DNA from: Blasia pusilla
Taxonomy: Eukaryota
DNA: 64,000 nucleotides
Direction of reading: 5' to 3'
NCBI GenBank assembly: GCA_050084515.1
Contig: CM114271.1
Span: forward strand, 46,128,001 to 46,192,000
Below the pieces are notes generated by a model. It was not told where the DNA came from. It made no database searches and was given only the letters and a program-made list of their open reading frames with translations. Both the position numbers and the translations under genes were made by a program. Of the stretch, positions 1 through 51,050 are shown piece after piece (within the stretch, counting starts at the first letter, position 1; the number at the start of each line of letters is the position of its first letter).

Positions 1-1155
1 CTCTTATGCTTGCAATAGGGCCAAATGGATAAGCCTTATCCATTATTGATAATATTAATATAAAAATATTATTATTATTTCCTGATATCTCCGTCACATT
101 TGCGATAATTTGTCACCGTTGCGCATTTCGGTCCCCGGGAACTAGCCTCTCTGGCCGTTCAGTTTCTTTTTCTATGAAGTCAAGGTCGAAGGAGCTCTAT
201 AGGATCCCCAGGTACGGTTTGTAGAGCTGTATCCTAGATCTTGAGCCCCATTGACATAACTATGGGTGACCTAACAATCATAGCATAAATATCTACGATG
301 GGATAAGCAAAGATGCCCGCTACACCCGCGATAGAGCGTGCCATGGCTTCGCTTGGTGTTGTGTTGCTGGAAAACGGGGGAGAGGTCTTCCACTTGGTGA
401 GTCCACGAGGTAGGGGTTTTAGTCCGCAACGCGTCTTGTTGGATTAAGGAACGCAACCCCTGATGTTGGGGAAAGCGGTTTCAGAGGATTGGGCTTGACG
501 AGAGCCAATATGGAGCGTTGTCCATCTTGGATACATACATCCTTGGATGGAGCGAGTACCACACAATATATCACATGAGAGGAGGTCATGGTGAGGATTC
601 GGCTAGGACATGCTACAGATGAGTCAGTGGTACAAGCCAAGGCGATAGTGACTCATGCAGAGTCCTACGACGTCTTTGTTGGTGGAGCAGTGTTTGTACC
701 CGATGGGGTTTTCATTGGATTACTGGGATGAGGCAGCGTCCTATAGACCAGTATGGCAGTCCGGTGATGGACGTCTTTGTTCATTACCAGTTTGATTCAC
801 ATGTGCTGTGATCGAGCAACGGCCAGGAGAGCTGACGACCTTAGCAGCATTTAGCAGCGCCATCACTTGGCCTAGTGATTCGATTGAGGGACATGTTCAT
901 GCAGAGGATACTCCCATTCTTGACATTTCTATGGAGAGGAGTGTCATGGTCGCTACATCATTCCATGGAGGAGAGGTGCCGCTTTGGGGTCCGATTGAGG
1001 AGCTTCAACGCTTAGCCACTGAGCATGTGCAGACCGCGTGGAGCGAGACGTTTGCACGAGAGCGTGACGGGTCAGAGGAACCCGAGGTAGCCGAGAGTGC
1101 TATGATGACGCCCTTGGATACCACACCCATTATGTGGTGCGTTCCAGAGGAGGAT

Positions 1156-2100
1156 ATTCGTGTGCTTGATCTCTTTGGCGGGATTAGCACTAGTGTAGCT
1201 ACTGTTTTGCAGGCTGGAGTACGCGTGCAACAATACATATATGTGGAGATTGATGATGTTGCAAGGCGCGCTGCACTTCACCATGTGGCATTTTTTTTTC
1301 CCGACTTTTTGTTTGCGTCCACTTTCCAAGGATACCAAAGTTCCCTACCAAGGGATATTGCATTGTTGGGGGCGTAGGACTTGGAGCGGGTAGAGACCGT
1401 AGACTTGGTCATTGCTCGTTGGCCGTGTCAGGGCCAATCGAGTGTTGGACAAGGTAGTAGGTTAGCTGACACTTGGTCTAGGTTATTTTGGGAAATGATG
1501 CGGATTTTACGACACTTGCAGGAGCATTGGTCCCGTTCTCCAACATATATTATGGAGAATGTGCCGATCTTGGGAGATTCAAGGTCACGGGTGGTGACGA
1601 GTGCACATCAGGTGCATGCATGGATCAACTCAGCAATATTTTTGGATGTGGCAAGTGTAGATTCTAGAGCACACCGCTCGCGTCTTTGGTGGACCAACTT
1701 GGTGCCACACGAGGTATTGCGGAGGGCATATCCGCGGGTGGAGCGCCCCTCCTAGTTGTTGGTGGATTCCATATTAGATCCCGTCCGTTGATCACAGGCA
1801 GTGAGGCACCATGATCGATCTTTGTTGACTGTGGTCAATAGGATTGGCATGCCACGGGCAAACTTCCCCATGTTGTGAGTTTTCCCGCTTCCTATACATT
1901 CAAGGAGGTTGCGTTTGGCTTGGTTTGGGATTACCAGGTAGAGCAATTGGTGGAGCCCAATGCCGATGAGCAAGAGCAAGTGATGGGATTCCCCACAGAA
2001 GTGACGATACTACGGAAGTATCGTCACTATCAGAGGCATCACGAACGTCATGTCTTGGGTCAGACAATGGACCTGAACTGCTTGATATGGATTTTTAGCT
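1156..2100 (+). pseudogene. DNMT3-like C5 cytosine methyltransferase domain in copy B (stops/frameshift)
   Basis: Motifs in unpermuted order: I VLDLFGGIS, II YVEIDD, III DI, IV WPCQGQS, VI ENV, VIII AHRSRLWWTN, IX EQEQVMGFP, X VLGQTMD. Confidence 0.9.
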
Positions 2101-2441
2101 TAGGAGTTGCTGAGCAGCGTCGTTTGACATTGCGACAGATTACAAGTGTTGCATTGGTGAGCCCCATGCCTACCGAGACGGTTGAGGCAGTGGCTGGGGG
2201 CGAGACTCGAGGAGATCGATACACCATGGGTGATTGGGAGAGACACCCTTGGACTTCTTGGGATGTTTTGCAAGTATGCTGGGAGATGATAGCCACAACA
2301 TTGAGCATCATTTCGGGTACTGCATATGGAGATCAGTTTTTGCAGTTGGCTATAGGGGAGCAGTCGAGTAGTACTGTCATGGACGGGGTTGCACCATAGC
2401 AACCACCAACACCTTGGCCAAAGAGTCCTACCATAGTCACG

Positions 2442-4839
2442 ATGGAGAAATGGGAGCCAGATATGGGCCCTAAGTTGACAGGAGGAGACCCGTGCCGGAT
2501 ACACCAGTTCCTAAGGAGTTATAGCAGTTGTATTACATTTAGTATGCATGATTTGGATACGCTTAAGGGTCTAGGGATCCGCATTGAGTTGTCAAGTGAC
2601 ACGCCGATCTTCCGACGACCCTACATGTACGGTGACATGGAGAGGGCTATGATTCAGAGTAGGAGCCACAACTTCGTTGGAGCAAGACTAATGGAGATGT
2701 CGCATGGAGAGTATGCATCTGCCACACATGCCCCAAAGAAGGATGTGCATGGCAACTTGACAAATAGGCGGATGTGTGGAGATTATCGACCTATCAATCG
2801 GCAGACAAAGTCTGATAGGTATGCCATGTCCACCCGTGAGGAGATCTTTGATGCTATTGGGCACGCAAAGGTCCCCAGTTCGTTAGATCTTAGAGTCGGA
2901 TACCATCAATTGCCCGTCAGATTGGAGGAAGACGAAATTTTTGGGCATCGATCCTCACGGGAAGGATTGCTTGTACTAGTGGCGGTTCTTACCATTTGGG
3001 TTAAAGAACGCCCCGGATGAGTTTCAGAGGGTCGTAGATAGGATCTTGGCACGTTTGGATTTTGCTAGGTATTATATTGGTGATATCGTAGTCTTTAGCG
3101 CCACGATTGAGGAGCATGAGCGACATCTAGAGGTGGTGTTGTGACGATTGCAGTAACATGGGCTGAAGCTATATCCAGGCAAGTGCAAGTTCTTCTATGA
3201 TAGATTGAGTACCTGGGTCATACCATATACCCATGTGGCCTTGATCTGTAGCACACAAAGGTAGAGGCTATTTCACTCATTCCACGCCCTACAAATGTGA
3301 GTCGGGTTTGTGCATTCATGGGATTGGCAAACTTCTATTGACAATATGTCAAGGGTTTCAATTTGATTTCAAAGCCGTTGACCTTGTTAACCAAGGTGGA
3401 TCAAGAGTGGCACTGGGGGGATGAGTAGGAGACAACATTTTAGCTGCTCAAGGGTAGATTGACCTCCGCGCCCATACTGAGGAGACCGATCAGGGGAGTT
3501 CCTTTCCAGTTGCATACACATTGGAGCATGTAGGGGCTTGGAGCCGTGCTTACCAACATGACAATGAGGGTAGAGAGTTCGTGGTGGCTTACGCTAGTCG
3601 CTCGAACAATGATGCAGAGGCGAAGTATAGCTCGTATGAGGGTGAGTGCTTGGCTGCAATGTGGGATGTCGCGCTTTTAGGTGTTATCTATTCGGAAATC
3701 CCTTAACCATCATTACTGATCATCAGCCAATTAAGTGGTTGATAGAGTTTGACAAGCTTACAGGGAAGCTTGCAAGGTGGGCTCTTTTGGTGCATGAGTA
3801 TGACTTCTAGGTGGTGCATAAACTTGGAACGCTCACTTCCAGGTGATGCATAGACCTGGAACGCTCAACAGTTTCGGTGGGAGGGGACACATGTGTTGCG
3901 AGTGTGGGAGAATGGTAGAGTACGTGTAGTTCCTCATCCTTCATAGAGAGCATGTTTGGTGCATCATGCCCACGAGGAGTTGGGTCATTTTGGAGTGAGG
4001 CGGACGTACAACTTGCTCCACATACAATATTGGTGGCGAGGCATGCAGACTGACGTTCAGCAGTTTGTTATCAGGTGTATGGTTTGTGATCGGGTCTGGG
4101 CATTGGTCAATGCTCCGACTCCATAGTTGCATCCACTTCCTATCATGGGTTTAGGTTATAGATGGATTTTGGATTTTGCAAGAACTTTGCCTTTGATGGA
4201 GCGCCATAGTCGTTATGTGTTGGTGATGGTCGAGCACTTCTCAAAGTGGATAGAGTTGGTTGCATTTCCTGAAAAAGCGAGTGAGGGAGTAGCGTATGCC
4301 TTCCTAGATTGAGTGTTCAGTCATTACGGTGCACGAGCTGAGGTGTTGATAGACCAGGGTACATAGTTTTGCAGGAAGTTTCAGGCCTTATCTGATCAAG
4401 CACTGATTGACCACTACACCACTTCGCGAGACCATCCTGAGGCGGATGGACTAGTAGAGAGGGTTGTGTAGACGATGAAGAGAGGATTACGCAAGTATGC
4501 CTTGCACAAAGGTCACCTAGGAGATTGGGACCTTCACTTGCCCTGGTTGGCAATGGGATACAGATTCAATATGCAGGCATTCTTATCGTCTTTCTCACCG
4601 TACTTGCTACTTTATGGCCGAGAGTCGGATTTACTTGCGGCCATTCGACGAGATGTTGGTGAGGTGTTGAACCTTGATAAACCTGATGTATGGATGCAAG
4701 CACGTTCTTAGAGGACTGAGTTATTTTGGAGAGTGATGCCCATGGCGTTTGAGAACTTAGCGATTGTGCAACATCGAGATACGTTGAGGTATGCGACTAT
4801 TCAAGGAGATGGTTATCGACATACTATCTGGAGGTTTCA
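2442..4839 (+). pseudogene. RT - RNase H - integrase of copy B (many stops/frameshifts)
   Basis: ORF fragments 2442-3020, 3521-3706, 4127-4312 and 4475-4711 match the RT/RH/INT fragments of copy A. Confidence 0.9.
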
Positions 4840-4967
4840 TATCGTGCGCATACACATCGCTACATAACATACATTGCTGTCATCGAACACACATAAAAAC
4901 ACACACGATCCCATGCTAACTCATGGCATCCATACACAGAGGCGAGAAGTGCCAAAATATCTCTAAT
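4840..4967 (-). repeat. Terminal repeat B2 of copy A
   Basis: Direct repeat of 5487-5597 (tcgtgcgc.tacacatcg...ccaaaatatctc.aat); absent from the element's other end. Confidence 0.88.
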
Positions 4968-5484
4968 TAAAGTAAGATCCAATCTCTCTCTACACCATCT
5001 CAGACCATAGCTCTCAAAGGTGTGCACTCTCTCTCATGTCAAACCAAACCCATTCTCCTCATGAGAGGCTTGGGTTACACTCACAAGGCAAGGGACCATA
5101 GCTCCGCCGCCTTATGCCAAGAGATTCAACAAAGAGAGAATGAGATCTCAAGCTCTCTCTCTCTCTTGGAGGTATACCCCCTTCCCTCTCCCAAGCCCTC
5201 TCAACGGTAACCTATGCTTGTAGGTCACCTCCTTGGCTCTTGACCTACTGTAGTGGGTCAAGGGACACTTCCCAAAGTGGAAAGTCAACTATCCATAACA
5301 TGGAAACTTACCCAAAATAGTAAGTTTCTCTATATGGCTACAAATGAGCTGAAACGAAGGGGAAACCTGCTCTCTCAGGTTTCCCGGGGCCTCAACAGGT
5401 CATCCTCGACCTCTTGGGCCTGTCCTCCACTACTCATGCAGTCGCTCTGCTAGATCCCATCGATCTATCCTAATAGTCGTAACA
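4968..5484 (-). repeat. Terminal repeat A2 of copy A
   Basis: Direct repeat of 14457-14979 (taaagtaagatccaatctc...tagtcgt(a/g)aca). Confidence 0.92.
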
Positions 5485-5486
5485 GT

Positions 5487-5597
5487 TGTCGTGCGCGTAC
5501 ACATCGTTGTCATCGAACACACACACAAACACACACGATCCCATGCTAATTCATGGCATCCATGCACATAGGTGAGAAATACCAAAATATCTCCAAT
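5487..5597 (-). repeat. Repeat B1 of copy A, preceded on the sense strand by a purine-rich tract
   Basis: Repeat of 4840-4967; sense strand reads TAGGGAGGCG then ATTGGAG; separated from A2 by 2 nt. Confidence 0.88.
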
Positions 5598-5771
5598 CGC
5601 CTCCCTAGCTGGTGGTTAGGTCCCTCTAACTCCAGATAGCCATCTATCTCTACCTACCACGACATACATCTCTAAGACGCTAAGAGCAGAAAGGTCGGGT
5701 GCTCATGTGGCCCCATCGTTAGTCGCCTTCCTATCATCCATATCATAGAAAAAGTCAGAATCTAAACCTAC

Positions 5772-5927
5772 CTAGTATCTCCTCTGTGTACATCTGGGAC
5801 ACATCCATCGTCCCCGAGGAACCCTAGTGAGAGGTGGCGTCAGACATGCCATATGCCAACCTCTCGAACATCCATCACAGACTAGCATTGTGGCCGCACC
5901 ACGAGCAGAACCTCACAACACACAACG
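5772..5927 (-). pseudogene. PHD finger at the integrase C-terminus, copy A
   Basis: Translation past the TGA at 5913: CVL*GSARGAATMLVCDGCSRGWHMACLTPPLTRVPRGRWMCPRC, a C4HC3 pattern. Copy B has Cys at the stop position (CMLC). Confidence 0.9.
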
Positions 5928-7060
5928 CAAGCCTGCAGGAACTACTACTGAGCTTGGATCTATTGTACCATCAATGTTAGGAATGTGACATGGCGCACAA
6001 TTGCGCACATGGTCCTTCCATACCATACCATCGCGTCCCTTCAACAAGAGAACAGCGGAGGGCAAAACGTCACGAACTCTCAGGATAGTGCGCCCTGCAC
6101 TCACATCCAACGTCGTCGGTGCTATCTGCTGCAAGTAGACATAATCTCCTTGATGAAACCTCCAGATAGTTGGTCGATAACCACCACCCCGAATAGTCGC
6201 ATACCTCAACGTATCCCGATGCTGCACAATCGCCAAGTTCTCGAACGCCATGGGCATCACTCTCCGAAATAACTTAGCCCTTTGAGAACATGCTCGAATC
6301 CATACATCTGGGTCATGAAGGTCCATCACCTCACCAGCATCTCGACGAATGGCCGTAGGCAAATCTGGCTCTCGGCCATAAAGTAGCAAGTACGGTGAAA
6401 AAGATGCTAAGGATGCCTGCCTGTCTGCTGAATCTGTATCCCATCGCCAACCACGGCAACTGGAGGTCCCAATCTCCTAGGTGACCTCTCTGCAAACCAT
6501 ACTTGCGTAAACCCCTCTTCACCGTCTGCACAACTCTCTCCGCTAATCCATCCACCTCGGGATGATCTCGCAAAGTCATGCGGGGGTCGATCATCGCTTG
6601 ATCACACAAGGCCAGGAACTCACCGTGAAACTCGATACCCTGGTCTGTCAACACCTCAGCTGGTGCGCCATAATGACTCAGCACTCTGTCAAGAAAGACA
6701 TAAGCTACTCCCTCACTCGCTTTGTCAAGAAATGCAACCAACTCAATCCACTTCCAGAAGTGCTCGACCATCACCAACACATAACGATTGTGATGCTCCG
6801 TCAAAGGCAAAGGTCCCGCAAAATCCAAACTCCATCTATAACCTAAGCCCATGATCGGTAATGGATGCAACTATGGAGTCGGAGCATTGAACGATGCTCG
6901 GACCTGATCACACTCCATGCACCTGGCAACAAAATGCTAAACGTCAGTCTGCATGCCTCACCACCAATACTCAATCTGGAGCAAGCTGTACGTCCGCTTC
7001 ACTCCAAAATGACCCAACTTCTCGTGGGCATGACGCACCAAATTTGCTCTCTGCGAAGGA
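5928..7060 (-). pseudogene. DDE integrase (HHCC zinc finger, catalytic core, C-terminal region), copy A
   Basis: H..LGHFGVKRTY..C..C, WSLDFAGPLP, VLTDQG.EF, DGLAERVVQTVK in ORFs 6331-6870 and 5913-6389. Confidence 0.92.
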
Positions 7061-7137
7061 TGAGGCACTACACGCACTCTACCATCTTCCCACACTCGCA
7101 ACACATGTGTGCCCTCCCACCAGAACCGTCTGGCTCG

Positions 7138-8846
7138 TTACAAGATCCGATCTCGCTCTCTAGACCCCACTGTGCTCGCGACGCTGCCAGTATGCAGGTA
7201 CTCCAAGACCACTCCATCGTCGTGAATGTCTCGGCCACGTGTCGTCTCCTCACCGACCTCTGGATCTAAGGACTCTCCAACAGACCTCGCCATCAAAGTC
7301 TCCGCAATCTGGCTCTCCATAGCCAACAAGCCCAAATAGGCTGACGCATGCCATCCTGGCACCAACTCCTCATCACTCTCACCATGCCAACGAGCTCCAA
7401 TCGCATCTCGCTGACTCGCGCATGGGTTATGGCTTAAACCATCTGCATCCCGGTTGAGCGTCCCAGGTCTATGCACCACCTGGAAGTCATACTCCTGCAA
7501 CAAAAGAGCCCACCTTGGAAGCTTCCCTGTAAGCTTGTCGGACTCCATCAACCACTTAAGTGGCTGATGATTAGTAATGATGGTAAAGGGATTTCCGAAT
7601 AGATAACATTTGAAATCTGCAACAGCCCACGCTACAGCCAAGCACTCACCCTCATACGAGATGTACCTCGCCTCTGCAGCGTTGTTCGAGCGGCTAGCTA
7701 AAGCCACCACAAACTCTCTACCCTCATCATCATGCTGGGTGAGCACCGCTCCAAGCCCCAACATGCTCCAATTTGTCTGCAACTGGAAAGGACGCCCCCT
7801 GATCGGTCTCCTCAAGATGGGCGAGGACATCAACCTATCCTTGAGCAACTGAAATGCTCATTCTTGCTCATCCCCCCAGTGCCACTCATGATCCACCTTG
7901 GTCAGCAAGATTAGGAGCTTCGCAATCGAACTGGATCCCTTGAAGTTTGCCAATCCCATGAATGTACGAACACGGCTCACATCTGTAGGGCGTGGAATGC
8001 ATGAAATAGCCTCTATCTTTGTCTATTGCACACCAAGGCCCCCAGGGTATATCGTATGATCCAAGTACTCAATCTGGTTGTAGAAGAACTTGCACTTTCT
8101 GGATGTAGCTTCATCCCATGTAACTGCAATCGTCGAAACACCTCCTCTAGATGTCGCTCATCCTCCTCAACCGTGGCGCTAAAGACTACAATGTCATCAA
8201 TATAACACCTAGCAAAATCCAGACCAGCCAAGATCCTATCCATCACCCTCTGAAACTCAGCCGAGGCGTTCTTTAATTCGAATGGTAAGAACCGCCACAG
8301 GTACAAACAATCCTTCCCGTGAAGATCGATGCCCCAAAATGCCGTCTTCTGCATGGCCTCCAATCTGATAGGTAGATGAAGGTATCCGGCTCGCAAATCC
8401 AATAAACTGAAGACCTTTGCATGTCCAATCGCATCAAATATCTCCTCAGGGGTGGGCATGGCATACCTATCGGCCTTTGTCTGCTGATTGACATGTCTGT
8501 AATCTCCACACATTTGCCTATCCGTCCAGTTGCCATGCACATCCTTCTTGGCGGGCATGACAATGGCAGATGGATACTCTCTATGCGACATCTCCACTAG
8601 TCCTGCTCCAACCAAGTCTTGGCTCCTACTCTGAATCAGAGCCTTCTCCATGTCACTGTACCTATAAGGTCGCCAAAAGATTGGCGTGTCACTCGACAAC
8701 TCAATGCGGATCCCTGGTCCCTTTAGCGTACCCAAATCCTCCATGCTAAATGCAAAGCAGCTCTTATATCTCCTCAGGAACTGATGTATCCGGCGCCACT
8801 CTCCTCCTATCAACTTAGGGCCCATATCTGGCTCCCAAGTCTCCAT
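7138..8846 (-). pseudogene. Reverse transcriptase and RNase H, copy A
   Basis: MCGDYR, LDLRAGY, LPFELKNA, YIDDIVVFS; RNase H ECLAVAWAV, LPRWALLLQEYDFQVVHRPG..N..ADGLS. Confidence 0.95.
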
Positions 8847-9179
8847 CGTGACTACAGTAGGACTCTCCGGCGCGGGTATCGGTGGTTGCTATGGTGCAAC
8901 CCCGTCTCGAACAAAAACACTCGGCCAACTGCTAACTCTGATCTCCTCCATGTGTAGTGGCCGGAACCACGCTCGATGCTTTGGCTATCATCTCTTGGCG
9001 TACCTGCAAAATATCCCAAGAAGTCCAAGGGTGTCTCTCCCGATCTCCCTAGGTGTGTAGATCTCCTTGGGTCTCGCCCCCAGCCACTGGCTCCACCGTC
9101 TCGGTAGGCATTGGGTCACCAACGCAACCGTTGTGATCTATCACGATCTCATATGGCGCAGCTCAACCACTCCCAAGTA

Positions 9180-9980
9180 GAGGATCCATGTCAAGCAGTT
9201 CATGTCCATTTCCTGACCCAAGATATGGCGTCGTGATGCCTCTGACATTGACGGTACTGTCGTCACTCCTGTGGGAAATCCCATCGCTTTCTCTCTCTTT
9301 TTAGCGTTGGGCTCCACCAACCTCTGAACCTCGTCATCCCAAACCAAGCCAGGACCGGCCTCCTTGTACAAATGGGAGGGGTGCTCCACTCTCTCATACG
9401 CCGTCTGTAACACCACATGGGGCACCAAGTTGATCCACCATAGACGCGGGCGATAGGATCTAGAACCTACACTCGCCGCATCCAAGAACACTATTGGGCC
9501 CATCCAGGCAAGCACCTGATGAGCACTCATCACCACCCGTGACCTGGAGTCTTCTAGGATCGGCACATTCTCCACAATGTAGGCTGGAGAACGAGACTGG
9601 TGCTCTTGCAACTGCCGTAAGACCCTCAACATCTCCCAAAAAAACCTGGACCAAGTGTTAGCCAATCCATTGTCTCGTCCAGCACTCGATTGGCCTTGAC
9701 AAGGCCAACCGGAAATGACCAAATCAATGGTCCCTACCCGCTCTAAGTCATGCGCCCCCAACAACGAAATATCCCTCGGTAGGGGACTCTAGTACCCCTG
9801 TACCGCGGACGCAGACAATAAATAGGGAAAACGTAGGCATAATTGCACCACATGTTGTAGTGAGACGCGCCTCGCAACATTATCACTCCCCACATACAGG
9901 TACTGTTGCACTCGCACTCCTACCTGCAAAACAGCAGCTAACATGGTGCTAATCCCTCCAAAGAGATCTAACACTCGAAT
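9180..9980 (-). pseudogene. DNMT3-like C5 cytosine methyltransferase domain, copy A
   Basis: VLDLFGGIS, GWPCQGQS, YIVENVP, YRPRLWWIN, EKAMGFPTGVT, ILGQEMD; ORFs 9789-10328 and 9141-9764 are in frame, split by one TAG. Confidence 0.92.
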
Positions 9981-10399
9981 ACCCTCCTCCGGGCTACACC
10001 AAAAAATAGGTGTGGTATCCAAAGGTGTTATTGTAGCACTCCCTGCTACCTCGGGTTCCTCAGACCCATCACGCTCTAGTGCAAATGCCTCGCTCCACGC
10101 TGTCTGCACGTGCTCATCTGCCAATCGTCGAAGCTCCTCACTTGAGCTCCTCAACGATATCTCTCCTCCACGGAATAATGCGGCTACCATAACACTCCTC
10201 TCCATAGAAATGTCAATAACGGGAGTATCCTGTGCATGGACATGTCCCTCAATCAAATCACTAGGCCAAGTGATGGCATTGCTAAATGCTGCTAAGGTCG
10301 CCATCTCTCCTCGCGGTCGCTCGATCACCGCACCTGTGAATTGAACGGGTTATGAGCTAAGGAGCCCATCATCTGACTGCCATCTTGGTCTGTAGGACG

Positions 10400-10742
10400 C
10401 TGACTCCTCCTAGTAATCCAAGGAAAACCCCATCGGGTATAACACCACTCCACCAACCAAGACGTCGTAGGACTCTACATCAGTCACTATCGCCTTGGTT
10501 CACACCACGGACTCATGTGTAGGATGTCTCGGGCGAATCCTCACCATGACCTCATGTTGGGTGATATACTGTGTGGTACTTGCTCCACCCAAGGATGTCT
10601 GTATCCGGAACGGACAACGCTCCACATCGGCTCTCGTCAAGCCCAATCCTCTAAATGACGCTTTCCCCAACATCAGGGGTTGCGCTTCTGAATCCAACAA
10701 GACACTTTGCGGACTAAAAGCTCTACCTCTGGGACTCACCAA
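10400..10742 (-). pseudogene. Retroviral-type aspartic protease, copy A
   Basis: VLLDSEAQPLM (degenerate DSGA) followed by YDVLVGG. Confidence 0.8.
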
Positions 10743-11399
10743 TTGGAAGATTTATCCTTGTTTATCCAGCAACACAACACCAGAAGAAGCCATGGCACGC
10801 TCTATCGCGGGTCTAGCGGGCATCTCCGCCATCCTAGCAGCCGCAGCCTGCTATGAATCTGACGTGGACGGCCTGAGCATCTGCTCCAAGGGCAGGTCCA
10901 TCACCTCCTCTACAATCACCTCTGAATGTGATGCAAGAACTCCAACTCCGCGCTCGCATAATGAAGCGGCCAGCCGAAAAGCCTCCATGGGCGTATCCCC
11001 CAACGTCATAACATCGGAAGCAGAAAATAAAGGAGTGCGATACACAACGGTGGCCGCCCCCAACAACGTGCTCGATACATGCCCCTCCTGAGCATCAACA
11101 ATAGGAGTCGTCGTACTCGCTTCTCTAATTGCCCTCCATGCTTGCACACCAACAACATCACCAACTCTCCAAGAACTTTGATGAGGACCCATCGATGGGG
11201 TCCTCATCGCTTCGAACAACGTGAAAGACTGAGGAAGCCTAGTATGTTTTCTGGATTCCTCTCGATGTGGATCCAACTCTGCGGCTGCTCCACACGTCAC
11301 AACAGTGGCGGCCTCCATCTAGGCAACCCTGCACATCCAACCAGGATCCTACATATCTGTGGCTGCTCCCTATGATGTCGATGCCACGGATCCGGCATC

Positions 11400-13010
11400 G
11401 GATAACCTCAATGCCATAGCGGCAATCTGCTCTTGTAGCTGTTGTATCTAAGCATCCATCCTAGCCTCACGTTCGGTGTTTTCCTCGACGCGTCTAGGTG
11501 GTGGTACTCCAACGGGACTACAAGGTGCACGATCTATAGGCCCACCCGGACCGGCTACTTGCGCTGGTGCCCTCTTTGGCCCTCGGTCCGGACGTAACTC
11601 AAGATGTAAATTGAAACATATGGCGCGTATATGACCATACCTCTGACAATAGTCACATTGATAACCTCTTGGTGCAGCACCATCTCCTCCTCCATTCTGA
11701 GGAACATGTCCATGAACTTGACGAGTGCAATCGCGCTGATAATGGGCTCCACCACATGACCAACAAGTAATAGTAGGCGGCTGCTGGTGAGCCGCATATG
11801 AAGGCGCAGGTCTCTGTGGCATGGCCTCCCGATATCCTCTCTGAGCTCGTGGTGCCACAGTCGCACTATCTCAGAGTCCACGTTGCTGCAGAGGTGGTGC
11901 AGCCAATCGTGACTCCTCTCGCCCAGAACCCATGGTGGCTACGCTCTCCTCCACCATGTTGCGCTCAATGTTCTCGACGGTCCTAAAAACATCTCTCAAC
12001 ATAGGGGAGGTGTTCATAAGAAGCACCCCCTCCCGCACCCGTGTCCGCAGGTCCGGCCCAATATCGCGTACCATGACTGGACAGCCTGAGCCTCCGTCAC
12101 CCCCTGAGTGACGTTGATCAACCGGCGCAAGTGAGTGTAAGCCTTGCGCAAACTCTCACCTGGGCGCCTCTGGAAGTCGTGGATGCTCCGCAACTTCTCC
12201 GTCCGTACCCCCTGGTAGCTGGCCCTCAACTCAGCAAAGAACTCAACCATGGGGTTGAACCTGGGACGAACCCGACTAGATGGTGCAACTACTCGAGTCC
12301 GAGAGACCCCTCCTAAAACATCACTAGTGGAAGAGGAAGTAGCCTCTCTTGACTCCTCCTCCTCATCTTGGAACGGCTCCGTCCATGACACATAGAATGG
12401 GTCATAGTAGAGTCGCCATGCCTCAATCTCCTTGGCATATATGTGGGAGAACTCATGGTAATCATCCATGGGCGCCCCCTCTAAATGCTGGAACATATCG
12501 TTCCATGTTGTAAAAGGGTTGAACTCTCTAGAGTTCTTGGCCTGTTGGGAGTCGCACCAACTCCTAAACTCTGCTATGAAATCGTGCAACTCAATCGTGC
12601 CTACTGCACCTGAAAACCTATGTAGTCCTCTATCCCGATCATCCATCTCGTACGCCCAACTGGTAGGACCACTCACAATGTATGGCGATGTGCTTACAAA
12701 ATCCTCTTCACCCTCCCCCTTGTTTGACAATGGCACAGAAGGAGGTCGAGGTGGTCCCTCACGTGGAGACCCACGGAACCTCGTGCCACTCCGCGTAAAA
12801 CCTCTAGAGCTACTCTCAGGTTCATCACCTCGCCTCTCAAAGTCTCGAACAGACGCCGTGATGACCCTCGTGCCCCTCTCACCCGATCACTCTCAACCTT
12901 GCGAGTAATCCCTCAATCACTCATCCCAAGCATGCGGCAGTCCATCTACATTCTCCCTCCCCGAGACGTATAACGTGTGGCAACACGCGGCGTGGTGCGG
13001 CTAATCGACC
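11400..13010 (-). pseudogene. gag with two CCHC zinc knuckles, copy A (start uncertain)
   Basis: CWSCGGAHYQRDC and CDYCQRYGHIRAIC; gag-like FQRRPGESLRKAYTHLRRL. Confidence 0.85.
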
Positions 13011-14456
13011 AAGCTATTATCTCATCGACAACCTACCCTTAACTCCGGACATCTCATGCAGGTCTATGTCCCCTAAACCACATACATGAATGATGCTCTC
13101 AGCATCCACACAAACCAATATCCCCAAATAAACTACCCAAATCCTAGAATCCCTCACACGTGTAGGGTAAAGGACCAGAATGGGTAACCTGAACACATGT
13201 TGATGCTGCTCCTCAGCAACTGCAAATCTTGACCCCAACTCGGTGGTGAAGAAAAATCCTCCAATCAGCAAGTCGTACTCCTTTCATACTGACGCTGCTC
13301 AACCTCCTCGATGTGCGGTGTAGGTCGAGTAGTCCGGTGCAGCACTGGAAACGCGGAACCGCTACAAACAGCATGGCACTTGGGAATTGGGTGCGGCAGT
13401 TGGCGGCATACCCTCCTCAATCAAAAATTCACACGCTCTGATCCTTAATGAAGGAAGGGTTCCGCGATCAAGATGGTGCGGTGTGGCCACTAGCGGCACA
13501 GCGCACCAATCGGCGGCGCGTTGCGGCTACGGGCGTCAAAGACGGTACTCAATCGACGTCGAGCGGTTACCAATCACAACATAGCAGCATGAAATCAAAA
13601 CTCAAACACCCTGACCGGAGGTTATCTGCCATCACTGGTTGATGATGACATTGCGATGACGGTGGCGGCCAAAACAAAGTACATGGTGGCGACGCAAGTT
13701 AGAGAATCAAGGAACGTCGTGGAAGACCCTCCACTCCGTAATGGCGGTAATGGCAACCAAAGGGTGGACAACGGACGGTGGACCGTTGACAGTGACGGTT
13801 GACCATTGATGGTGACGGTTGACCGATGACGGTGATGGTTGACTATCAACGGCAAACCGTTGATGGTGACTATGACGGCGGCGGCCACCGCCAGCGTGGC
13901 GGCTGTTTTAGGGTTTGAACAATTTAACCCTAAAAATTGCCTAGCAATGGCAATTTTACAAGATTGACCATAACTTTTTGCTCGCAACTTTAAATTACGC
14001 ATTGTTTATTGCACAACGTGCACAACTTCATGTTCTACGATAGCGTCAAAAAAAATTTAGAATCACAAATTTCAATAAAAATTGACGGGGATTGTCGTAA
14101 AGCCCAATGTCTCTTTCTCCTACACAAAATTTGGCAGCGCTTCGGCGCTGATTTCTTCCAACGAAAATGTAAGACGTGTAAAAAATCAAATCAGCAAGCT
14201 AGATGGTGCTCCCGAGAGCGCTGGCATGGGGCAACCTGCCCCCATAATCAATCCCTATCAAAAATTGGGCAGCGCTTCCGCACGCCACTCTTCCACACAA
14301 AAAATCGGCAAATGCAAAGAACAATCAAAGCAGCCCTTGCTGCGGTGAGCACTCCCATGAGCCGCTGAATGGGGAACACGGTCCCCAACCTGCCAAAACA
14401 GCGAGTGACCAGCGAGCTCCCCCATGAAGCTCTCTCACTCTCTCATTCTCTCTTTG

Positions 14457-14979
14457 TAAAGTAAGATCCAATCTCTCTCTACACCATCTCACACCATAGC
14501 TCTCAAAGGTGTGCACTCTCTCTCATGTCAAACCAAACCCACTCTAATAATGAGAGGCTTGGATTACACTCACAAGGCAAGGGACCACAGCTCTGCCGCC
14601 TTATGCCAAGAGGTTCAACAAAGAGAGAATGAGCTCTCAAGCTCTCAAGCTCTCTCTCTTGGAGGTATACCCCCTTCCCTCTCCCAAGCCCTCTAAAAGG
14701 TAACCTATGCTTGTAGGTCACCTCCTTGGCTCTTGACCTGCTGTAGCGGGTCAAAGGCTACTTCCCAAAGTGGAAAGTCAACTATCCCCAACATGGAAAC
14801 TTACCCAAAATTAATTATATATATATATATAGCTCCAAATGAGCCGAAACGAAGGGGAAACCTATTCTCTCAGGTTTCCCGCGGCCTCAACAAGTCATCC
14901 TTGACCTCTTGGGTCTGTCCTCCACTACTCGTGCAGTCGCTCTGCTAGATCCCACTGATCTATCCTTATAGTCGTGACA
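14457..14979 (-). repeat. 5' terminal repeat A1 of copy A
   Basis: Matches 4968-5484. Not followed by B sequence or by a TGG-type tRNA primer site (next bases on - are AAGAGAGAATGAGAG). Confidence 0.92.
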
Positions 14980-14983
14980 TTCA

Positions 14984-16217
14984 TCAGGGAGACTATGTGT
15001 ACTCGCAGCACACAACATCCACGACATTGGATGTGATTGCAGGGCTTACCATCTTGAGAGTGCATGAGATTTTGCCATCTAGTGTTCTCTTATTAGAGGG
15101 ACGCGATGATATGGTTTGGAAGGACCATGTGCGTAATCGTGCGTCATGTCACCTTCCTAACATTGACGATACAGTTGATCCGAGCCTAGCAGTAGTTCAT
15201 GCAGGCTTGCGATGTATGTTGTGTGGTTGCGCCCGTGGTGCAGCTACTATGCTAGTCTATGATGGTGTTCGAGAGGATGGCATATGGCATGTTTGACGCC
15301 ATCCCTCAGTAAGATTCCCGAGGGACGATGGATGTGTCACAGATGTACATAGGGTAGGTAGTTCTAGATTCCGACTTGTGTCTGTGATATGGATGAAAAG
15401 AAGGCGACTAACGATGGGGCCATATGAGCACCCAACCTTCTTGCTCTTAGCGTCCGAGAGATGTATATCATGGTAGGTAGGGATAAATGGCTATCTAGAG
15501 TTAGAGGGACCTAACCACCAACTAGGGGGGGGGGGGATTGGAGATATTTTGGTACTTCTTGTCTCGTTGTTTGGATGCCATGAGTTAGCATGGGATGTAG
15601 CGATGTGTATGCGCACAAGAGCTGTCACGAATTTTTAGGATAGATCGAAGAGATCTGGTAGAGCGCCTTCGCGACTAGAGGCGGACAGGCTCACGAGATT
15701 GAGGATGACCTGTTGAGGTCATGGAAAACCTGAGAGAGCAGGTTTCCCCTTCGTTTTGGCTCATTTGGAACTATATAGACAAACTTACTATTTTGGTAAG
15801 TTTTCATGTTTGGTAGAGTTGACTTTCTATATTTGGAAGTGACCCCTGACCCGCTTCAGTAGGTCCAGAGTCAAAGAGGTGATCTACGAGCATAGCTTGG
15901 GAGAGGGAATGTGATATACCTCAAAGAGAGAGAACTTCAGAACTCATCCTCTCTTTGTTGAACCTCTTGGCATGAGACGGCGGAGCTATGATCTTGCGTG
16001 GAGCCAAGCTTATCATTAAGAGAGTGGGTTTGGTTTGACATTAAGAGAGACATGTGAAACTGCATCTTAGATTATGGTGTTGAGAGAGATTGGATCTATT
16101 TGATTTATTGGAGATATTTTGATATTTTTTATCTCGTTATTTGGATGCCATAAATTAACATGGGATCGTGTGTATTTATGTGTATGTTTGTCGACAACGA
16201 TGTGTATACATACGACA
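14984..16217 (+). mobile_element. Copy B right part: integrase C-terminus, PHD remnant, PPT (15524-15536), B1 (15537-15620), A2 (15623-16106), B2 (16107-16217)
   Basis: ORF 14997-15296 matches copy A INT/PHD; G-run precedes ATTGGAGATATTTT, which recurs at 16107; ends TACGACA. Confidence 0.9.
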
Positions 16218-17509
16218 AACCTCTTTGAGAAGACATTGTTTCAGTTCATCAAACCTCTTAGTCAACTACTCTTGATAGATGACCAAGAGGCTATGGTCTT
16301 GCTAGTTACAGATTGGTAGGATTCAAAAGTGGACCACAACTTGAGCTTGTAGAGACCTAGTGAGAGGTCTGCATGAAATGTGTGTTGATAGCAGATGGGG
16401 TTCTCAAGGGGAGAGTAAGTAGACTGATGGATCTCATTTTCCTAGACTCATCTGCCAACATTCTCAATCAGATCTCAACCTTCTAGGCTTGGATTCTCAT
16501 GAAGAGGGTGATGAGATGGACAAGATCAACAAGCAAGCTTCAGATCTCGGAGCCCAAGCCTCTTCCACAAACATCAAGAACCAGCCAGAATCAGAAGCAG
16601 CTCCACGACATAAGATCCACAAAAAGTCAAGTTTTTTAGATGAAGCCACCGTGAAGAAAGATTGACTATTTAAGTTATTGGAGTTCAGATTCAGAGACTG
16701 AATGATAGAGACCATCCATTTACGTGAATCTACCATCAGAATCCCGGATGAACTCTCTGGGAACCACTATCCTCAATACAACCCGTCCTAAAGTTTCTAA
16801 ATCAGTGGTATCTCTAAGAGTCGACATTTGGTTCTGGCTAGCCTCAGTGCTGCAACCAGTATCGCCTGGAATTTTGATTTTTTTAGCAACTGATGTGATG
16901 GGGATGGAAGTTGACAAGACACCAGATAGAAAATACTACAAAAAGAGTGAAGAGTCCGTATGGCGTTAAATTTGGCTCACATCTCCATTCAATCCTACAG
17001 CTTATCCCCTTGCATTTTGCAGCCTCTGCAGTTTGAATCAAGTTGGCATCCAGAGATGACCAAAATATGTGGCAGCAGGAGAAAGAGAACCACATAATAA
17101 GGCCTAGTAGTGGCCCTAAATCTTGTAATTTCCAGTATCATGGTCCTCTTAGTTTCCTTACAGAGTAAATCACTTCATTCTTTCATTCCCATGGCAGGAA
17201 AAAGTTCGTTATGTGTGATTAGAATCAATTCAGCCATTGGAATTGTTAGATGACTGAGACAGAGCTTAAGAAATGACGTTCAAAAGCAGAATCAGTTCAG
17301 TGAACATGGCATTTCAATGGATTTTGAAAAACTGTGGAAAGAATCAACAGAGATTGCCTTGAATGTTTCTAGAGACCAGGGATGCTAAAATTTGTTCAGA
17401 CGTTATGATATACACTGAACATCAATTCCAAGATAATGCCACTAAATAGGCTTTGTACGAGAGATGTAAATATTTACAACAAAGAATAAATTTGGCAATT
17501 ACTCTACAG

Positions 17510-20500
17510 TCACTCTAACTGTCCACTTCCACCGAAGATAATAGGCTTCAAAAAATAGTACTGCTCAAATCTTTGTCGTGCATACTCCAAATAGTTGAAG
17601 TCTATATCCGATGTTAGGGCCTGTGAAATACGATGCACAATCAAATTTTTTTGCATGGTAAGCACTTGTCACTTTGCTACTGCTTAATTAAAGAATTGAG
17701 TACCTTAAGATCAAAGAAGCTAGTTAACAATAAGTGCGGCATCATAACACTTCATCTACTTGGGAAACCTGAGATGTGGCAATCCAAAATCATCCACTAT
17801 CTGAAAAGTTTGGATAGACTAGAAACACATTGCCTGCTTGAGAACATTGTCCTAGTATTGATAAACAGATTCTCCTCACAATTATATGGCTTCTTTATTT
17901 GAAAGAGATGATCTTCAAGCAACTTCTCGCATTGGCTTCGACCAGCAAATAAGCAGTTTGAATAGGAAATTAATGGGAGGTTGGTACTGCAACAACTCAC
18001 AGAAATGATTCCCCATAGACCCCACAGTAGATGACTGGCAAGTGTGTATGCATCGGTAGCCTTCATCAAATCTTCGATATCAGTCTCATGAACTGTCCCA
18101 TCTACATTGGCATCACAATCATCCACCGAATATTGGTTAGTTTCAACACACAAACTGTACTTTGAACTGTCGACATGATGCAATAAGATATCAGGACTCA
18201 ATCCTGACCTAACCTGCAGAGATCAATCCCTAATCTGTGAGTCTACACTGTTGTGCCTAGCTGTAGTGCATGGAGCTAAGGCTGAATGTGGAACAAGCAT
18301 CATTGCAGTGAAGCTTCCCCCAATGACATATGAAATATGACAAACACAGTTCTCACCTAGAGCTTGTAGGTAAACTGTAATGAATATTCGACGCTCTTCA
18401 TAATCTGTGCCATGAAGGATCACATGCTAAACTCATTAAAATTGATAGGCAATGATTCACTGGTGGTATGAACATGGAAGCATAAGTCAAAGCCCTCCAT
18501 AATAACAGCATTAGGAAGCAGACATCAGTTGAGCAAGCATCACACACTGACTCCATTTGAGCGTATTCCTGTACCAAAGTTGGCCAAAAGTCTTCATAAG
18601 CATGCCATCATTCTGCAGTCAATGCCACTCTACAAGTATCATCTAACGCTACCCTACCATGGCAGCAGATGGCAGGAATCGGCAGAAAGAAATTGCAAAA
18701 AGAGTTCTTTCTTTGGAGCTGATATCTGCCATGGAGAGTCCAAACATTCAGATGAAGGGAGACTTAGAAGTTTGCACTTCTAGTCCCATTCAATCTATAA
18801 TATGCATCATTAGATCCACTTATTGTTCTTCTAGTTGTGGACCACACGGTAGCTGTTCATGAAGACAATCCAGTCATGAGTTTCAGTCACACAAATGTGC
18901 ATTCATCATTCGTTTCACCAAGAGAAGGTTACTCACGAGGAAATTTGCCATAATCCAGGATGTGAGGTGTATCTGTGTGGTAGTCGGCAGCCATTTCACA
19001 AAAGTGGTTAGCGATGTCAAATGCAACTGGGTTGAAACTTGCGTACTCATAGTCCTGTTACACGACAAACACAACATGATCAGGCTAAAAGCTTATTACT
19101 TCTTGTGAAGAGTCGTCATTTCACACAATAGCCCCACAATTGAAGAGACGTACTAAGAGGTGATAATGAATGAGAAGTGCAAGAAGCATAATTGCTGCTA
19201 CAACCAACCAACGAAGAGCCCTAGTGCCAAACAACCAGCTTGCATCCTGCATGGCCAGAACATTGAGTGAAGGAGAGAACCTACAATGATAGTGATGGTG
19301 TTATCATTCTCGTCGATCATGACATTCCCGTACTGCAGATCATTGTGACAAAATCCAATCATTTCGTCTGGCGTTCGTATTCTTTTCTCCAGTTCAGCTA
19401 TCTCTTCACTTAAATGATGCAGCCGAAATTCCACTATATGGCTCGTGCTGGCCCTCTTCAAAGTTTCATCTAACCACAAACTGCTGAGGGGAACACGGAT
19501 TACTCAGATGACCAAATCATTCCAGTCGAATGAGACGGGTGGCGTTCTCCTGTGGCTCGGAACGGGTACTTTCTCAAGATGATTTCTACACGTCCAGCTG
19601 AGATTGTAATATTTTCAAAGAACACACGAAACGAATCGACCAACGCAAGTGCAGTCAAAGAGCATCAACCTGAGGCGTTGCCATAGAAAGGGCTGTGCTG
19701 CTCCGGGCATGTCGAGTCCATGGAATTCCCTCAGCTTCACGGCAATCTGGTTCGACACTTCGGGGACCCGCAAGTCTGCAGCCGACAAAGTCTGCTCCGC
19801 CCACAACCCAACAAAAACAGATCAGAGAGCTGCGACAACGTCGAGCAATGCTGTCGACAATCTGAGTCAGTGAACCTGATCCCAGTCTCCAATGAGCAAC
19901 GGTGCAATGGAAAACTCTGGGTGCTTCGTATCCAAGCTCTCTCCCGAACTCCCCTGGCTCATCATGGCCAGCCCCATGGACAATTGCCTCAAACGACACC
20001 GCGCAAGGATAAAGAACGGCAGAGCCTAACTAGTTCATTGGAGAAAGTGTACGATAACTAGTTCATATTGGAGAAAGTGTATGGGCGGGTGTGGACTAGA
20101 GTTGGAAGTGTTGTAGAACGGGGATGTTCACCGTTTGTAGACAAGAGTTGGGCAGTGTCGATTACACATCCGCTACCAAATGATAGCCCATTTCACTTCT
20201 GACCGTCAGAGATAAACTGCAATGAGCTGTACCCTGGCATGGAGAAACTCTTCGACGCGGCCGTTGTGAAATCTAGCGAGCAATTGAGGACCTTGTCCCT
20301 GCTGAGACATCCTCTCGAACGTCAGAATTTCGCTCTCTCTGCTGAAGAAGAGCTCTGAGCTCTCTCCATACACACGCACCAACACCTTCCTGGGCTTCCC
20401 ACGGTGCTTCTTCGACGCCCAGAGACACTCGAAGACTTGATTGGTCATGGCACCCCTCAGTGGCTTCAGAGACAGGTTGCGGTAGCTGGAAATGTCGGTC

Positions 20501-20798
20501 CAGTTTTTGGCTAACCTGAAACACAGCACATCCATCAGCAGAAGGAAGCACTGGAAAACTGAAAAAGAAGCATGAATTCGCCTTCCATCTGACTGCCTGC
20601 ACCGAAATTCTTCTCCCCGGATACGACTCTGCAGTCGCCTTCGGACTCGCAACCAGGCCCTGCACCCTAAATTGCAGCAACGCTCTACATCTATCAAAAC
20701 GAAACCCCACAAGCCATCGAGGGAGAAAGAAATGTACCGGTGCAGAACGGCATACGCTTCCACTGGAATCTCCCAATCATCATCCAAGCTTCCAGCAC
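17510..20798 (-). CDS. Choline/ethanolamine kinase; exons approx 20798-20738, 20515-20233, 19791-19670, 19480-19285, 19054-18937, 18404-18357, 18101-18001, 17620-17510; start codon not located
   Basis: [37 protein letters not shown] (Brenner motif), [41 protein letters not shown] junctions with consistent phases. Confidence 0.9.
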
Positions 20799-23667: not shown

Positions 23668-24827
23668 AATCATGCACATACACATTGTTATGCAACAAAC
23701 ATTGTTGTCACCATCCATACACTTATAAAATAAGTCACCCTACCAATAATGAAGTTCGTACATTTCCAACGATCGTATACCAAAAAGATCTCCAATTTCT
23801 CCCCTTAGTGATGGTTACGTTCCTCTAATCCAATATAGACATCAATCCATTCTACTATGGCATATTCCCTAGTGATATTAAGAGGAAAAAAGTTAATGTT
23901 CTCATGTGGCCCTATTGTTAATTTCCTTATTATCATCAATATCACTCAAGCAAATCCAGATCTATAATTACCTTTCTTATGTACATCTTGGACATATCCA
24001 TCATCCCTAGGAAACCTTAACTAGCAAGAAATGGATCTAAACATGCATGCCATGTGCCACCTTCTCAAACACCCATCATAGATTGGCATGAGAGTCACGC
24101 CTTTGGCCGATCCACACCACATACAACGTCAACTTGCATATACCACCACCAAGAATGGGTCAGCCGTTCTAGCAATGTTGGTGTTGCAAATAGTTAAGTC
24201 TATGGTGTCAGAGACTCGAGAATAGAGTCATGATATTGGGTCAAAGATAGAGAGACCTTGGTGTGACCCACCAAAGATAAAACCTAGACTAGCTAGTTAC
24301 AAGACTACAAAGGGCAGTAAAACTTATCGCAAGACTAACACTAGTCAAAATGGGCTTGCATGCACCTTGAGACTAATCTTAGAAGATACAGGGCGTTACC
24401 ACTCATGAATATGAGGGTGAGGCCAAAAAGGGATAAGACCCTTAAGATGAGTTCCGAATGAGGGGTGAATAGTTAGGAAGATGGGAATGACCAAGAAGGG
24501 AAAAATACCATGCATGTAAGACTAGTCACAAAACACAAAAAGCGGGAAGACAACACTACGACGCCAAATGGTGAGAGTCAAGATGGGCTCTAGACATGAG
24601 ACATAAAAAACATACGGTAAGGTTCCAAGATCTATATGAGTTTGGGGAAGTCAAGATGGGCAGAATCTGCCAAGAGACTTCCCAAGTCATCTACAGCTTT
24701 GACTAATCAAACGCGGGCTAGCGAGACACAGACCACATTTTGGTTGTGGACCAAATCCAAAGGCCCAAAGTGGAGGATGGGAGAGGTGTGGTTCTTCTAG
24801 TGAACCCTATAAGTGACTATGGGGAGG

Positions 24828-24901
<74 letters not shown>

Positions 24902-26483
24902 CTTGGAACAAGGGATTAATCATGTTTTGTATTTAGCCATGTTTCAGGTTTGAGCTAAGGAACGTTTGGGACACCTCTCGAAGAATCAACCAATATATAT
25001 TTGCTTTGGTTTAGGTGAGGACTTGGGGAGATTGGCAAAGGCTTGGGGAAGACACTTGTTAAGCAGATAGTATGTATCTCGACAGACACAAAACCATTTA
25101 GCGCTTGCCGATTAATTGGCTTGCCTACGGAACACGTGGCCAATTACAATTGTATCTTTAAGACTCAACCCAAAATTTATGATTGCAAAACTCAAGGTTG
25201 GGTTATTTTTACAGACTAGCAACCTAGGATTAGTAGAGGTTTAATTCTACCATGGTTGGGAAAGTGACATAATAGGTAGTTGCACATATGGTCCTTCCAA
25301 ACCATACCATCATATCCCTCTAATATAGTCTTTAAAAAAAGGATGCTAAATGGAAAAATGTCACACACTCTCAAAATAGTATGCCTTATTGTAATATCCA
25401 ATATTCTTGTTGATTTTTTCCTATAAGTAAAGGTAGCCTACTTTATGAAACCTTTAGATCTTGAGTCGATAGTCTCCTCTCAAACAATCACATATCTCAA
25501 TGTATCCCGATATTGTGGAATAACCAAGTTCTCAAATATCATAGGTCTAACTCTCCAAAAAAATCTCTACTTGTTAAGAACATGCTCGCACCCATACATT
25601 GGAATCATCAAGCTTTAACATCTCTCTAGCATCCAAAAGAATTACCATATTTAAATCGAGATCTCGTCCATAGAGAAAAAAATATGGTGAAAATAAAACC
25701 AAGGATGTCTCCAAGCTAAACCTAGAGCCCATTTCCAACAACCTTGAAAATTGTAAGTCACAGTCATGGATTAAGAGGTTGGCATTGGGATTTTGACTCC
25801 ATGCCCAGTCAAAGTAGTTTAGTTTTGGATCCCAATCTTGGACCTAAGGTGAAATATTGAGTTTCGATTGGGTATTTGGTATTGCCAAGCGCACTAGCCC
25901 CATTTAAAGTCCCTAGACTCTTAAGGAAGTTTGTCCCAAGCCTTGAATGGCTTCCTTATGTTGTGGAGTGAGGGCTTAGGTTGGTATTTGATCTCATCTA
26001 GATCTATTGAGCTTTAAGCGAAAGTAGAGATCTAGTTTCAAGAGACCCAAGGTTGGTTAAGCTAAATTATGGCTAATGTGAGTAAGTTTGGGTGTAGGTC
26101 AATAATGAGATAGTGACTTGTTGAACACAAGCTTTTGCAAGATACAAGACCAGGATGTACAACACGTGGATATGTGTTGGTGATGGTTGAGCATTTTTTA
26201 AAGTGAATAGAGTTGGGTGCATTGTTACACAAAGCAAGTGAGGGAGCAACCTATAGATTCCAAGATTGAGTGTTGAGTTAGCATACCGCACCAAAAAGAG
26301 GTGTTTATGGACCAAGGCACGAAGTTTTGTAGGTATTTTTAGGTCTTGTGTGATAAGGAAACAATCGACCATCACATGATGTTGTGAGATCGTCATGAGA
26401 CGGATGGTTGAGAAGAGCGAGTTATCTAAAAAATGAAACGAGGTTTGCATAAGTATGGCTTGCAAGGAGGTCACTAGGAGGAC
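23668..26483. mobile_element. Old relic of the same retrotransposon family: B repeat/PPT/PHD (23668-24180, -), INT C-terminus (25250-25765, -), INT core (26133-26483, +)
   Basis: Similar to copy A 5487-6480 (DGMVWKDHMCN; ccaaaagatctccaat); on + VLVMVEHFLK*IEL and KRGLHKYGLQGGH. Confidence 0.75.
24182..25224. mobile_element. Unrelated ~1 kb insertion (solo-LTR-like) interrupting the relic; contains a long (CT)n tract at ~24830-24897
   Basis: Begins TGTTGC, ends near GCAAC; separates two colinear integrase pieces. No TSD confirmed. Confidence 0.4.
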
Positions 26484-50786: not shown

Positions 50787-51050
50787 CATTGATGGAAGAA
50801 AACCATCAATGCGATTCTTACTGCCCACAGTGACGCAAGAGAGCCATGGGATTCAATTGAAGCCACCGAATTCGAAGCAAGCGAAGTAGTAGAGCAAGCC
50901 CAAGCAAGCCAGAGACCATTGATGGAAGAATGCCATCAATTCGATTATCACTGCCCACAGTGACCCAAGAGAGCCATGGGATTCAATTGAAGCCACAGAA
51001 TTCGAAGCAATCGAAGTAGCAGTGCAAGCCAAAGCAAGCCAGAGACCATC
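50787..51050. repeat. ~130-bp tandem duplication
   Basis: cattgatggaagaa...gcaagccagagac occurs twice. Confidence 0.85.

Follow-up and report, generated by a model that had tools for sequence, protein, structure and literature searches.

A PHD finger at the integrase C-terminus of an abundant DNMT3-bearing Ty3/Gypsy element of the liverwort Blasia pusilla

Introduction

Chromatin readers and DNA methyltransferases are already known from LTR retrotransposons, be it in PHD-bearing Gypsy elements, in LTR elements that combine a reader with methyltransferases, or in Gypsy elements that bear a DNMT3. The closest described system is KnitGypsy-Dnmt3 of Klebsormidium nitens, a DNMT3-bearing Gypsy with DIRS-like repeats, whose methyltransferase yielded no methylation when assayed in yeast, a result that the authors judged inconclusive (PMC5890265). 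The text and supplements of that paper make no mention of a PHD finger, and its Fig. 4c may show one (PMC5890265). PHD fingers in retrotransposons have otherwise been called widespread (PMC6673714; bioRxiv 10.1101/2021.11.30.470311; PMC8557442), and in Chlamydomonas reinhardtii the finger of such Gypsy elements was proposed to limit harmful insertions, intergenic insertions of one PHD-bearing Gypsy being 2.6 times more frequent than expected (PMC9940879).

From the perspective of histone recognition, PHD fingers that read H3K4me3 have an aromatic cage with an invariant Trp, whereas readers of unmodified H3 lack the cage and rely on acidic residues (PMC10124903; PMC5415848). The ADD domain, for its part, is an animal addition to DNMT3 (PMC11244446).

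Here, we analyzed a 64-kb stretch of the Blasia pusilla genome (contig CM114271.1, positions 46,128,001 to 46,192,000; hereafter the window), in which an element of the Ty3/Gypsy type carries both a PHD finger and a DNMT3-like domain. A PHD finger is also present in the Gypsy Gag-Pol of Gypsy-7a_cRei and REM1 of Chlamydomonas reinhardtii, which differ, as far as their published descriptions allow comparison, by their ordinary paired LTRs and by the fact that no DNMT is reported for them (PMC9940879). The pairing of a chromatin reader with DNA methyltransferases in one LTR element recalls the EpiLTRs of Cymbomonas and Euglena, but these associate a chromodomain, a DAM and a DNMT4-related enzyme, are stated to be distinct from the streptophyte Gypsy-DNMT3, and are described in a 2026 preprint from whose main text PHD is absent (bioRxiv 10.64898/2026.05.21.726589). 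A reader domain at the integrase C-terminus is likewise found in chromoviruses (Tcn1, Chlamyvir, Tekay), yet there it is a chromodomain, in a separate RT clade with plain LTRs (PMC6317226); the text of the REXdb paper leaves PHD and methyltransferase unmentioned (Neumann et al. 2019, PMC6317226). We found no paper that deals with the land-plant occurrence of the Blasia family or with its PHD, figures, Repbase, subscription papers and bioRxiv supplements, which may already document the finger or the bryophyte copies, being outside the scope of the survey. What is new is not the kinds of domain but their occurrence on such a scale in a land plant and how widely the clade extends.

Results

A PHD finger ends the integrase of a split-repeat element

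The element under study, hereafter copy A, is encoded on the minus strand and occupies 4840-14979; a gag-like region and a protease-like motif come first, and the DNMT, RT, RNase H, integrase, and PHD follow in this order. The family is represented in the window by the following features:

311..4839, plus strand: older same-family copy, with DNMT, RT, RNase H, and integrase, into which copy A inserted
4836..4839, no strand: target-site duplication TTCA, with its partner at 14980-14983
4840..4967, minus strand: repeat B2, the 3' end of copy A
4968..5484, minus strand: repeat A2, 91% identical to A1
5487..5597, minus strand: repeat B1, which ends in CA and is followed by a 2-base spacer and then A2
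5787..5924, minus strand: PHD finger (C4HC3) of copy A, its frame closed by a stop at 5769-5771
5985..6161, minus strand: beta-rich conserved C-terminal segment of the integrase, before the finger, with no Pfam match
6439..7053, minus strand: H2C2 zinc-binding and catalytic core (rve) of the integrase, with stops and frameshifts in copy A
7459..8672, minus strand: reverse transcriptase and RNase H
9144..9974, minus strand: DNMT3-like C5 cytosine methyltransferase, within Pol and upstream of RT
10400..12900 (approximate), minus strand: gag-like region with zinc knuckles and the protease-like motif LLDS[EG]AQ, recognized by eye, with no Pfam match
14457..14979, minus strand: repeat A1, the 5' end, which begins with TG
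14980..16203, plus strand: rest of the older copy, with a damaged PHD at 15213-15349, then B1-A2-B2
23777..26480, no strand assigned: rearranged family relic, with a damaged PHD at ~23980-24125 on the minus strand

An earlier note on this DNA had described a C4HC3 finger hidden behind one stop, and this was borne out: in the translation of the minus strand over 5772-5927, one TGA (5913-5915) stands where other copies show the second Cys ligand. The search against PF00628 that the same note had proposed gave 40.1 bits when the stop was read as X and 44.6 bits when only the portion behind it was scored, for a curated cut-off of 24 bits, and an unbroken natural copy (L033) reached 48.8 bits over the full model. 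Besides this score, the finger has the Cys4-His-Cys3 ligands and the Trp two residues before Cys7 that define the family. Its place in the polyprotein is given by another copy (L031), in which an open frame of 786 aa comprises the end of RT, RNase H, rve, and the PHD finger, the latter being in frame with the integrase and the final domain ahead of the stop. All eight ligands are intact in 25 of 46 copies of the host genome, a set assembled by resemblance to the segment upstream or by length of frame, with preference for well-preserved copies. The segment at 5985..6161 is one that we take to be SH3-like in fold, from integrase anatomy; a single-sequence AlphaFold model of this segment together with the PHD had a pLDDT of 37.5, too low to inform on the fold. 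The finger is a real PHD at the integrase C-terminus of a DNMT3-bearing Ty3/Gypsy element.

Two further fingers had been announced in the window, and both are real, albeit more damaged than that of copy A: the one at 15213-15349 (plus strand) has a frameshift and a Tyr in place of Cys3, and the one running from 24125 to about 23980 (minus strand) carries stops. The former had been ascribed to a separate element, "copy B"; this proved to be the tail (3' end) of the plus-strand copy whose first part lies at 311-4839, from which copy A, flanked by its TTCA duplication, separates it.

The element is bounded by split direct repeats, A1 ... B1-A2-B2, whose outer termini are TG and CA. Across 12 copies, the 4-bp target duplication is perfect in eight, has one mismatch in two, and is unclear in two; four solo A+B units were also seen, and such units with 4-bp duplications occur. 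Because of these termini and duplications, we attribute insertion to the integrase despite the DIRS-like repeats; no permuted element (A-B-A at the 5' end) was met in 30 loci. A 4-bp duplication is common to Phygy, a non-chromovirus of REXdb, whose NCGN preference was not found for the Blasia element. The A1/A2 divergence is 0.085 in copy A and 0.010-0.058 in 11 other copies, and none of 20 copies taken at length has an unbroken Pol. As side observations, the internal B1/A2 junction (5484-5487 in the window; loci L151-L180) reads CA, 2 bases, TG and resembles the junction of an integrase-substrate circle; a G-rich tract lies ahead of B1; and no canonical primer-binding or tRNA primer site was recognized by eye after A1.

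Several host features surround these copies:

17345-21000, minus strand: choline/ethanolamine kinase gene, spliced and expressed
27355-27934, 50787-51052, 52049-52492, and 60400-63140: degenerate tandem repeat arrays
29635-31949, plus strand: gene with a UFD1 domain and a TRAFD1/XAF1 zinc finger
41969-46636, minus strand: RNA-dependent RNA polymerase gene (RRM and RdRP), RDR1/2-like by the matches listed
55758-58864, minus strand: two long open frames of 329 and 672 aa, with no Pfam match

Among proteins of >1152 residues, the RdRP shares 58% identity with Riccia, 43% with a moss, and 36-46% with the other matches listed. Together with the nearest named relatives of the element (see below), this match points to a liverwort host. 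The 64-kb window contains no tRNA gene.

The element belongs to a green-lineage clade apart from chromoviruses

Several traits tie the element to KnitGypsy-Dnmt3, namely an intronless DNMT3-like domain in a Gypsy Pol and DIRS-type split direct repeats A1..B1-A2-B2 (PMC5890265). The domain itself retains the PC and ENV motifs, and its 29 PDB matches are all DNMT3A, DNMT3B, or DNMT3C. A Klebsormidium DNMT-RT-integrase protein (P0117), presumably one of the published copies, falls in the RT clade of the element, and a second protein of Klebsormidium, GAQ92421.1, resembles the Blasia element in having both this integrase end and the PHD. The two differ in host and number, the Blasia family residing in a land plant in thousands of copies, versus few in K. 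nitens (PMC5890265).

In a quick RT-RNase H tree of 69 rows, a subset of the best 120 of 1501 matches, the element lies within a 46-row clade (SH-aLRT 100). Among the matches listed, its nearest named relatives are Marchantia and Calypogeia, Marchantia being its sister (72% identity), and the same clade holds Klebsormidium, Closterium, Tetraselmis, Haematococcus, and many further proteins. The integrase-PHD end also recurs, among 116 matches, in Marchantia, Calypogeia, Sphagnum, Cymbomonas, and Klebsormidium.

Within this clade, 27 long members have both a DNMT (decayed in three) and a PHD, and no clear case of a PHD without any trace of DNMT was met among the long relatives; five members begin too near RT for their DNMT to be judged. 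Six relatives, including Closterium, keep the DNMT and the SH3-like fold with a C-terminus devoid of PHD; with a Closterium-type sister subclade lacking it, the finger is dispensable for the lineage. The position of the PHD is constant while that of the DNMT varies among branches: it precedes RT in most long members, but a subclade of 14 rows has it after RNase H and ahead of integrase.

The earlier note had read the finger as standing in place of the chromodomain that chromoviruses carry. As to position, the description stands, since both domains sit at the integrase end; but PF00385 is found neither in the element nor in any clade member listed, so that "in place of" is true for position only. 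That the element would be a chromovirus whose chromodomain was exchanged for a PHD, and which would likewise target H3K9-methylated heterochromatin, is a reading that we consider very improbable. In a 35-row tree that includes four chromodomain elements of the host, the eight chromovirus-type RTs stay apart (SH-aLRT 99-100 across the two quick trees), and the element is not nested among them; it has, moreover, split repeats rather than plain LTRs. With the RT outside the sampled chromoviruses, those of Blasia included, the element does not appear to be a chromovirus with a swapped domain. A topology holding the clade and the chromoviruses as one group was not rejected (AU p 0.18), and a deep sister relation thus remains compatible with the placement of the element outside chromoviruses that these trees indicate. 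The host genome has many chromodomain Gypsy elements of its own (150 scored matches of 1636 candidates), which offer an internal control for target choice.

A further domain, with the motif xTSP[PW]F, was observed behind the PHD in many algal-type members (P0074, P0092, P0095, P0100, P0104, P0106, P0107, P0109, P0111, P0112, P0114, P0116, P0118, P0120, P0122). In the ESM Atlas it groups with phage and bacterial clusters at 0.95-0.96; N6_Mtase (14%) or MTS (26%) occurs in two of these clusters. These algal elements would then have an adenine-MTase-like domain in addition to a cytosine MTase and a PHD, a combination that the EpiLTR preprint does not describe in its main text (bioRxiv 10.64898/2026.05.21.726589).

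What the finger could read

Finger residues could be parsed in 120 of 147 family proteins. None of these 120 has a Trp two residues before the His, which we take to be the H3K4me3 cage position; a Gly occupies it in 108, and the residue is likewise Gly in the Blasia family. An Asp follows Cys3 in 116 of 120, an acid lies at or beside the "acidic wall" site (placed by inference from an alignment with KDM5B) in 82 of 120, and the median net charge is -4. The Asp after Cys3 and the P-x-G-x-W motif, both kept, are presumably the contacts for Arg2 and Ala1 of H3, putatively so here. Among the best 60 of 85 solved matches are CHD4, PHF12, KDM5A/B PHD1, KAT6A, DPF3, PHF21A, AIRE, BAZ2A/B, and UHRF1, and none is ING, BPTF, TAF3, or Pygo; KDM5A/B PHD1 and BAZ2A/B PHD are the closest solved sequences and share with the family finger the lack of the cage Trp and the Asp after Cys3. 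On the basis of the missing cage, the Asp, the acids, the charge, and these matches, the finger of the clade looks like a candidate reader of unmodified H3.

The liverwort branch departs from this picture. The acidic wall of KDM5A/B and BAZ2A/B is present in most algal members and absent in the Blasia family, whose finger has Ala-Ala at the site and five Arg versus one Asp, for a net charge of +4. This loss of acids is common to its Marchantia, Calypogeia, and Sphagnum neighbors: in the liverwort/moss subclade P0123-P0135 and the Blasia family, the acidic loop is gone and the net charge is 0 to +4. With these acids lost, histone binding may be weak or redirected in this branch, and that of the Blasia finger is uncertain. 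The earlier suggestion that the PHD reads the H3K4 state is hence plausible for the unmethylated state only, and is weakened for liverworts.

In this regard, the finger of the liverwort branch could be no histone reader at all but a zinc-stabilized module that binds DNA or RNA or a non-histone protein of the host or the element, or that helps the integrase to assemble, a serious reading that we nonetheless hold to be somewhat unlikely. The change of charge fits it, atypical targets of PHD fingers are documented (PMC10124903), and no insertion bias was detected around 52 flanks. However, the Asp after Cys3 and P-x-G-x-W persist, and PHD2 of KAT6A, a known H3 binder, is likewise near neutral over the aligned stretch. 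As for the flanks (55 minus two internal A2 junctions and one duplicate), 14 of 52 lie in the same family. For controls taken at even intervals, the figures are nine of 40 stretches (Fisher p 0.81) and, counted by pieces, 58 of 280 (Fisher p 0.36), in a low-power test that detects only the Blasia family and host chromoviruses.

Abundance, transcription, and selection

In the 390 Mb (26 contigs) of the genome that were searched, one 16-base repeat end has 2283 exact matches, and over 40 stretches of 3 kb sampled at even intervals the family makes up a mean of 18.6% (bootstrap 9-29%). Sense-strand RNA spans the whole element (raw reads, three runs of one study), with a depth, summed across the family, of ~90 in the bin of the PHD versus 2-5 on the opposite strand. 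Its polarity is that of the neighboring minus-strand host gene and reverses at the plus-strand copy. The choline-kinase gene, used as control, has a depth of 6-24 and its contig matches without any difference. Most reads of the element are 90-95% alike and therefore derive from other copies.

When subfamily L065 is compared with 11 copies of the main family, dN/dS is 0.11 for the PHD (95% CI 0.04-0.30), 0.09 for both the integrase core and RT, and 0.19 for the DNMT (0.13-0.28), values that come from this single subfamily comparison with dS near saturation (1.0-1.3). Inside the main family, the folded domains give 0.3-0.7, as expected under post-insertion decay. These ratios indicate that PHD and DNMT are under purifying selection between subfamilies, which for the DNMT is a further trait shared with KnitGypsy-Dnmt3. 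Among copies, C/T differences affect 13% of CG, 11% of CHG, and 2.6% of CHH sites. Decay at CG and CHG is what host methylation alone would produce, and this methylation footprint cannot be credited to the enzyme that the element itself encodes.

The earlier note had gone further, proposing that the element carries a reader and a writer that couple target choice to self-methylation, by analogy with the ADD of animal DNMT3. A PHD and a DNMT3-like domain are indeed both present and both apparently under selection; that they would form one reader-writer unit we consider improbable. Their joint presence in the 27 long relatives, the selection on both, and the excess of C/T differences at CG and CHG over CHH would all suit such a unit. 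Against it, however, six relatives retain the DNMT but have no PHD, three combine an intact PHD with a decayed DNMT, the DNMT shifts along Pol while the PHD stays fixed, and the CG/CHG footprint has its explanation in the host. The analogy itself finds no support on two counts: no ADD family is among the eight Pfam matches of the intact finger, and ~1,070 residues, which include RT, RNase H, and integrase, separate the finger from the DNMT that precedes it.

Discussion

On this basis, the finger would be an inherited accessory domain at the integrase C-terminus of a split-repeat, DNMT3-bearing Ty3/Gypsy lineage of the KnitGypsy-Dnmt3 type, a lineage that appears to span green algae, charophytes, liverworts, and mosses. 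We propose that the finger stays with the integrase after processing of the polyprotein and could anchor the integration complex on nucleosomes by way of the unmodified N-terminus of H3 (Ala1/Arg2), which would bias insertion away from promoters marked by H3K4me3. In the liverwort branch, because the acidic patch is gone, this contact would probably be weak, or partly electrostatic with DNA. The methyltransferase would act separately from any control by the finger, its most likely target being the element's own cDNA, as hypothesized by de Mendoza (2018). About this reading as a whole, in which a processed integrase-finger tethers to H3K4-unmethylated nucleosomes and the DNMT works independently, probably on cDNA, we are evenly divided.

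With regard to genome annotation, many bryophyte and green-algal gene models labeled "PHD-type" or "DNA methylase" are pieces of this element and call for caution. The Marchantia models MARPO_0060s0038, Mp_7g09570, and MARPO_0091s0058 (P0124, P0126, and P0011), labeled PHD-type or hypothetical, are such pieces of the family.

Roles for PHD and DNMT in retrotransposons are proposals of long standing that have had no direct test. A transcribed family that has both domains and makes up about a fifth of a land-plant genome renders target choice and cDNA methylation testable, and the relatives in Marchantia (72-83% identity), a system with chromatin maps and genetics, extend this to both steps. Natural variants provide built-in controls, in the form of acidic versus basic fingers, a PHD-less subclade, and two positions of the DNMT. 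In a broader and more speculative picture, which we regard as rather unlikely in its entirety, these elements would form an unclassified Ty3 clade spread throughout the green lineage, with split repeats, a mobile DNMT3, and an integrase PHD as its hallmarks (and an adenine-MTase-like tail in many algae), in which the PHD would direct insertion to H3K4-unmethylated chromatin and the cDNA would be methylated beforehand. Since in a liverwort the family remains transcribed and accounts for about a fifth of the genome, it may then contribute to the methylome of its host.
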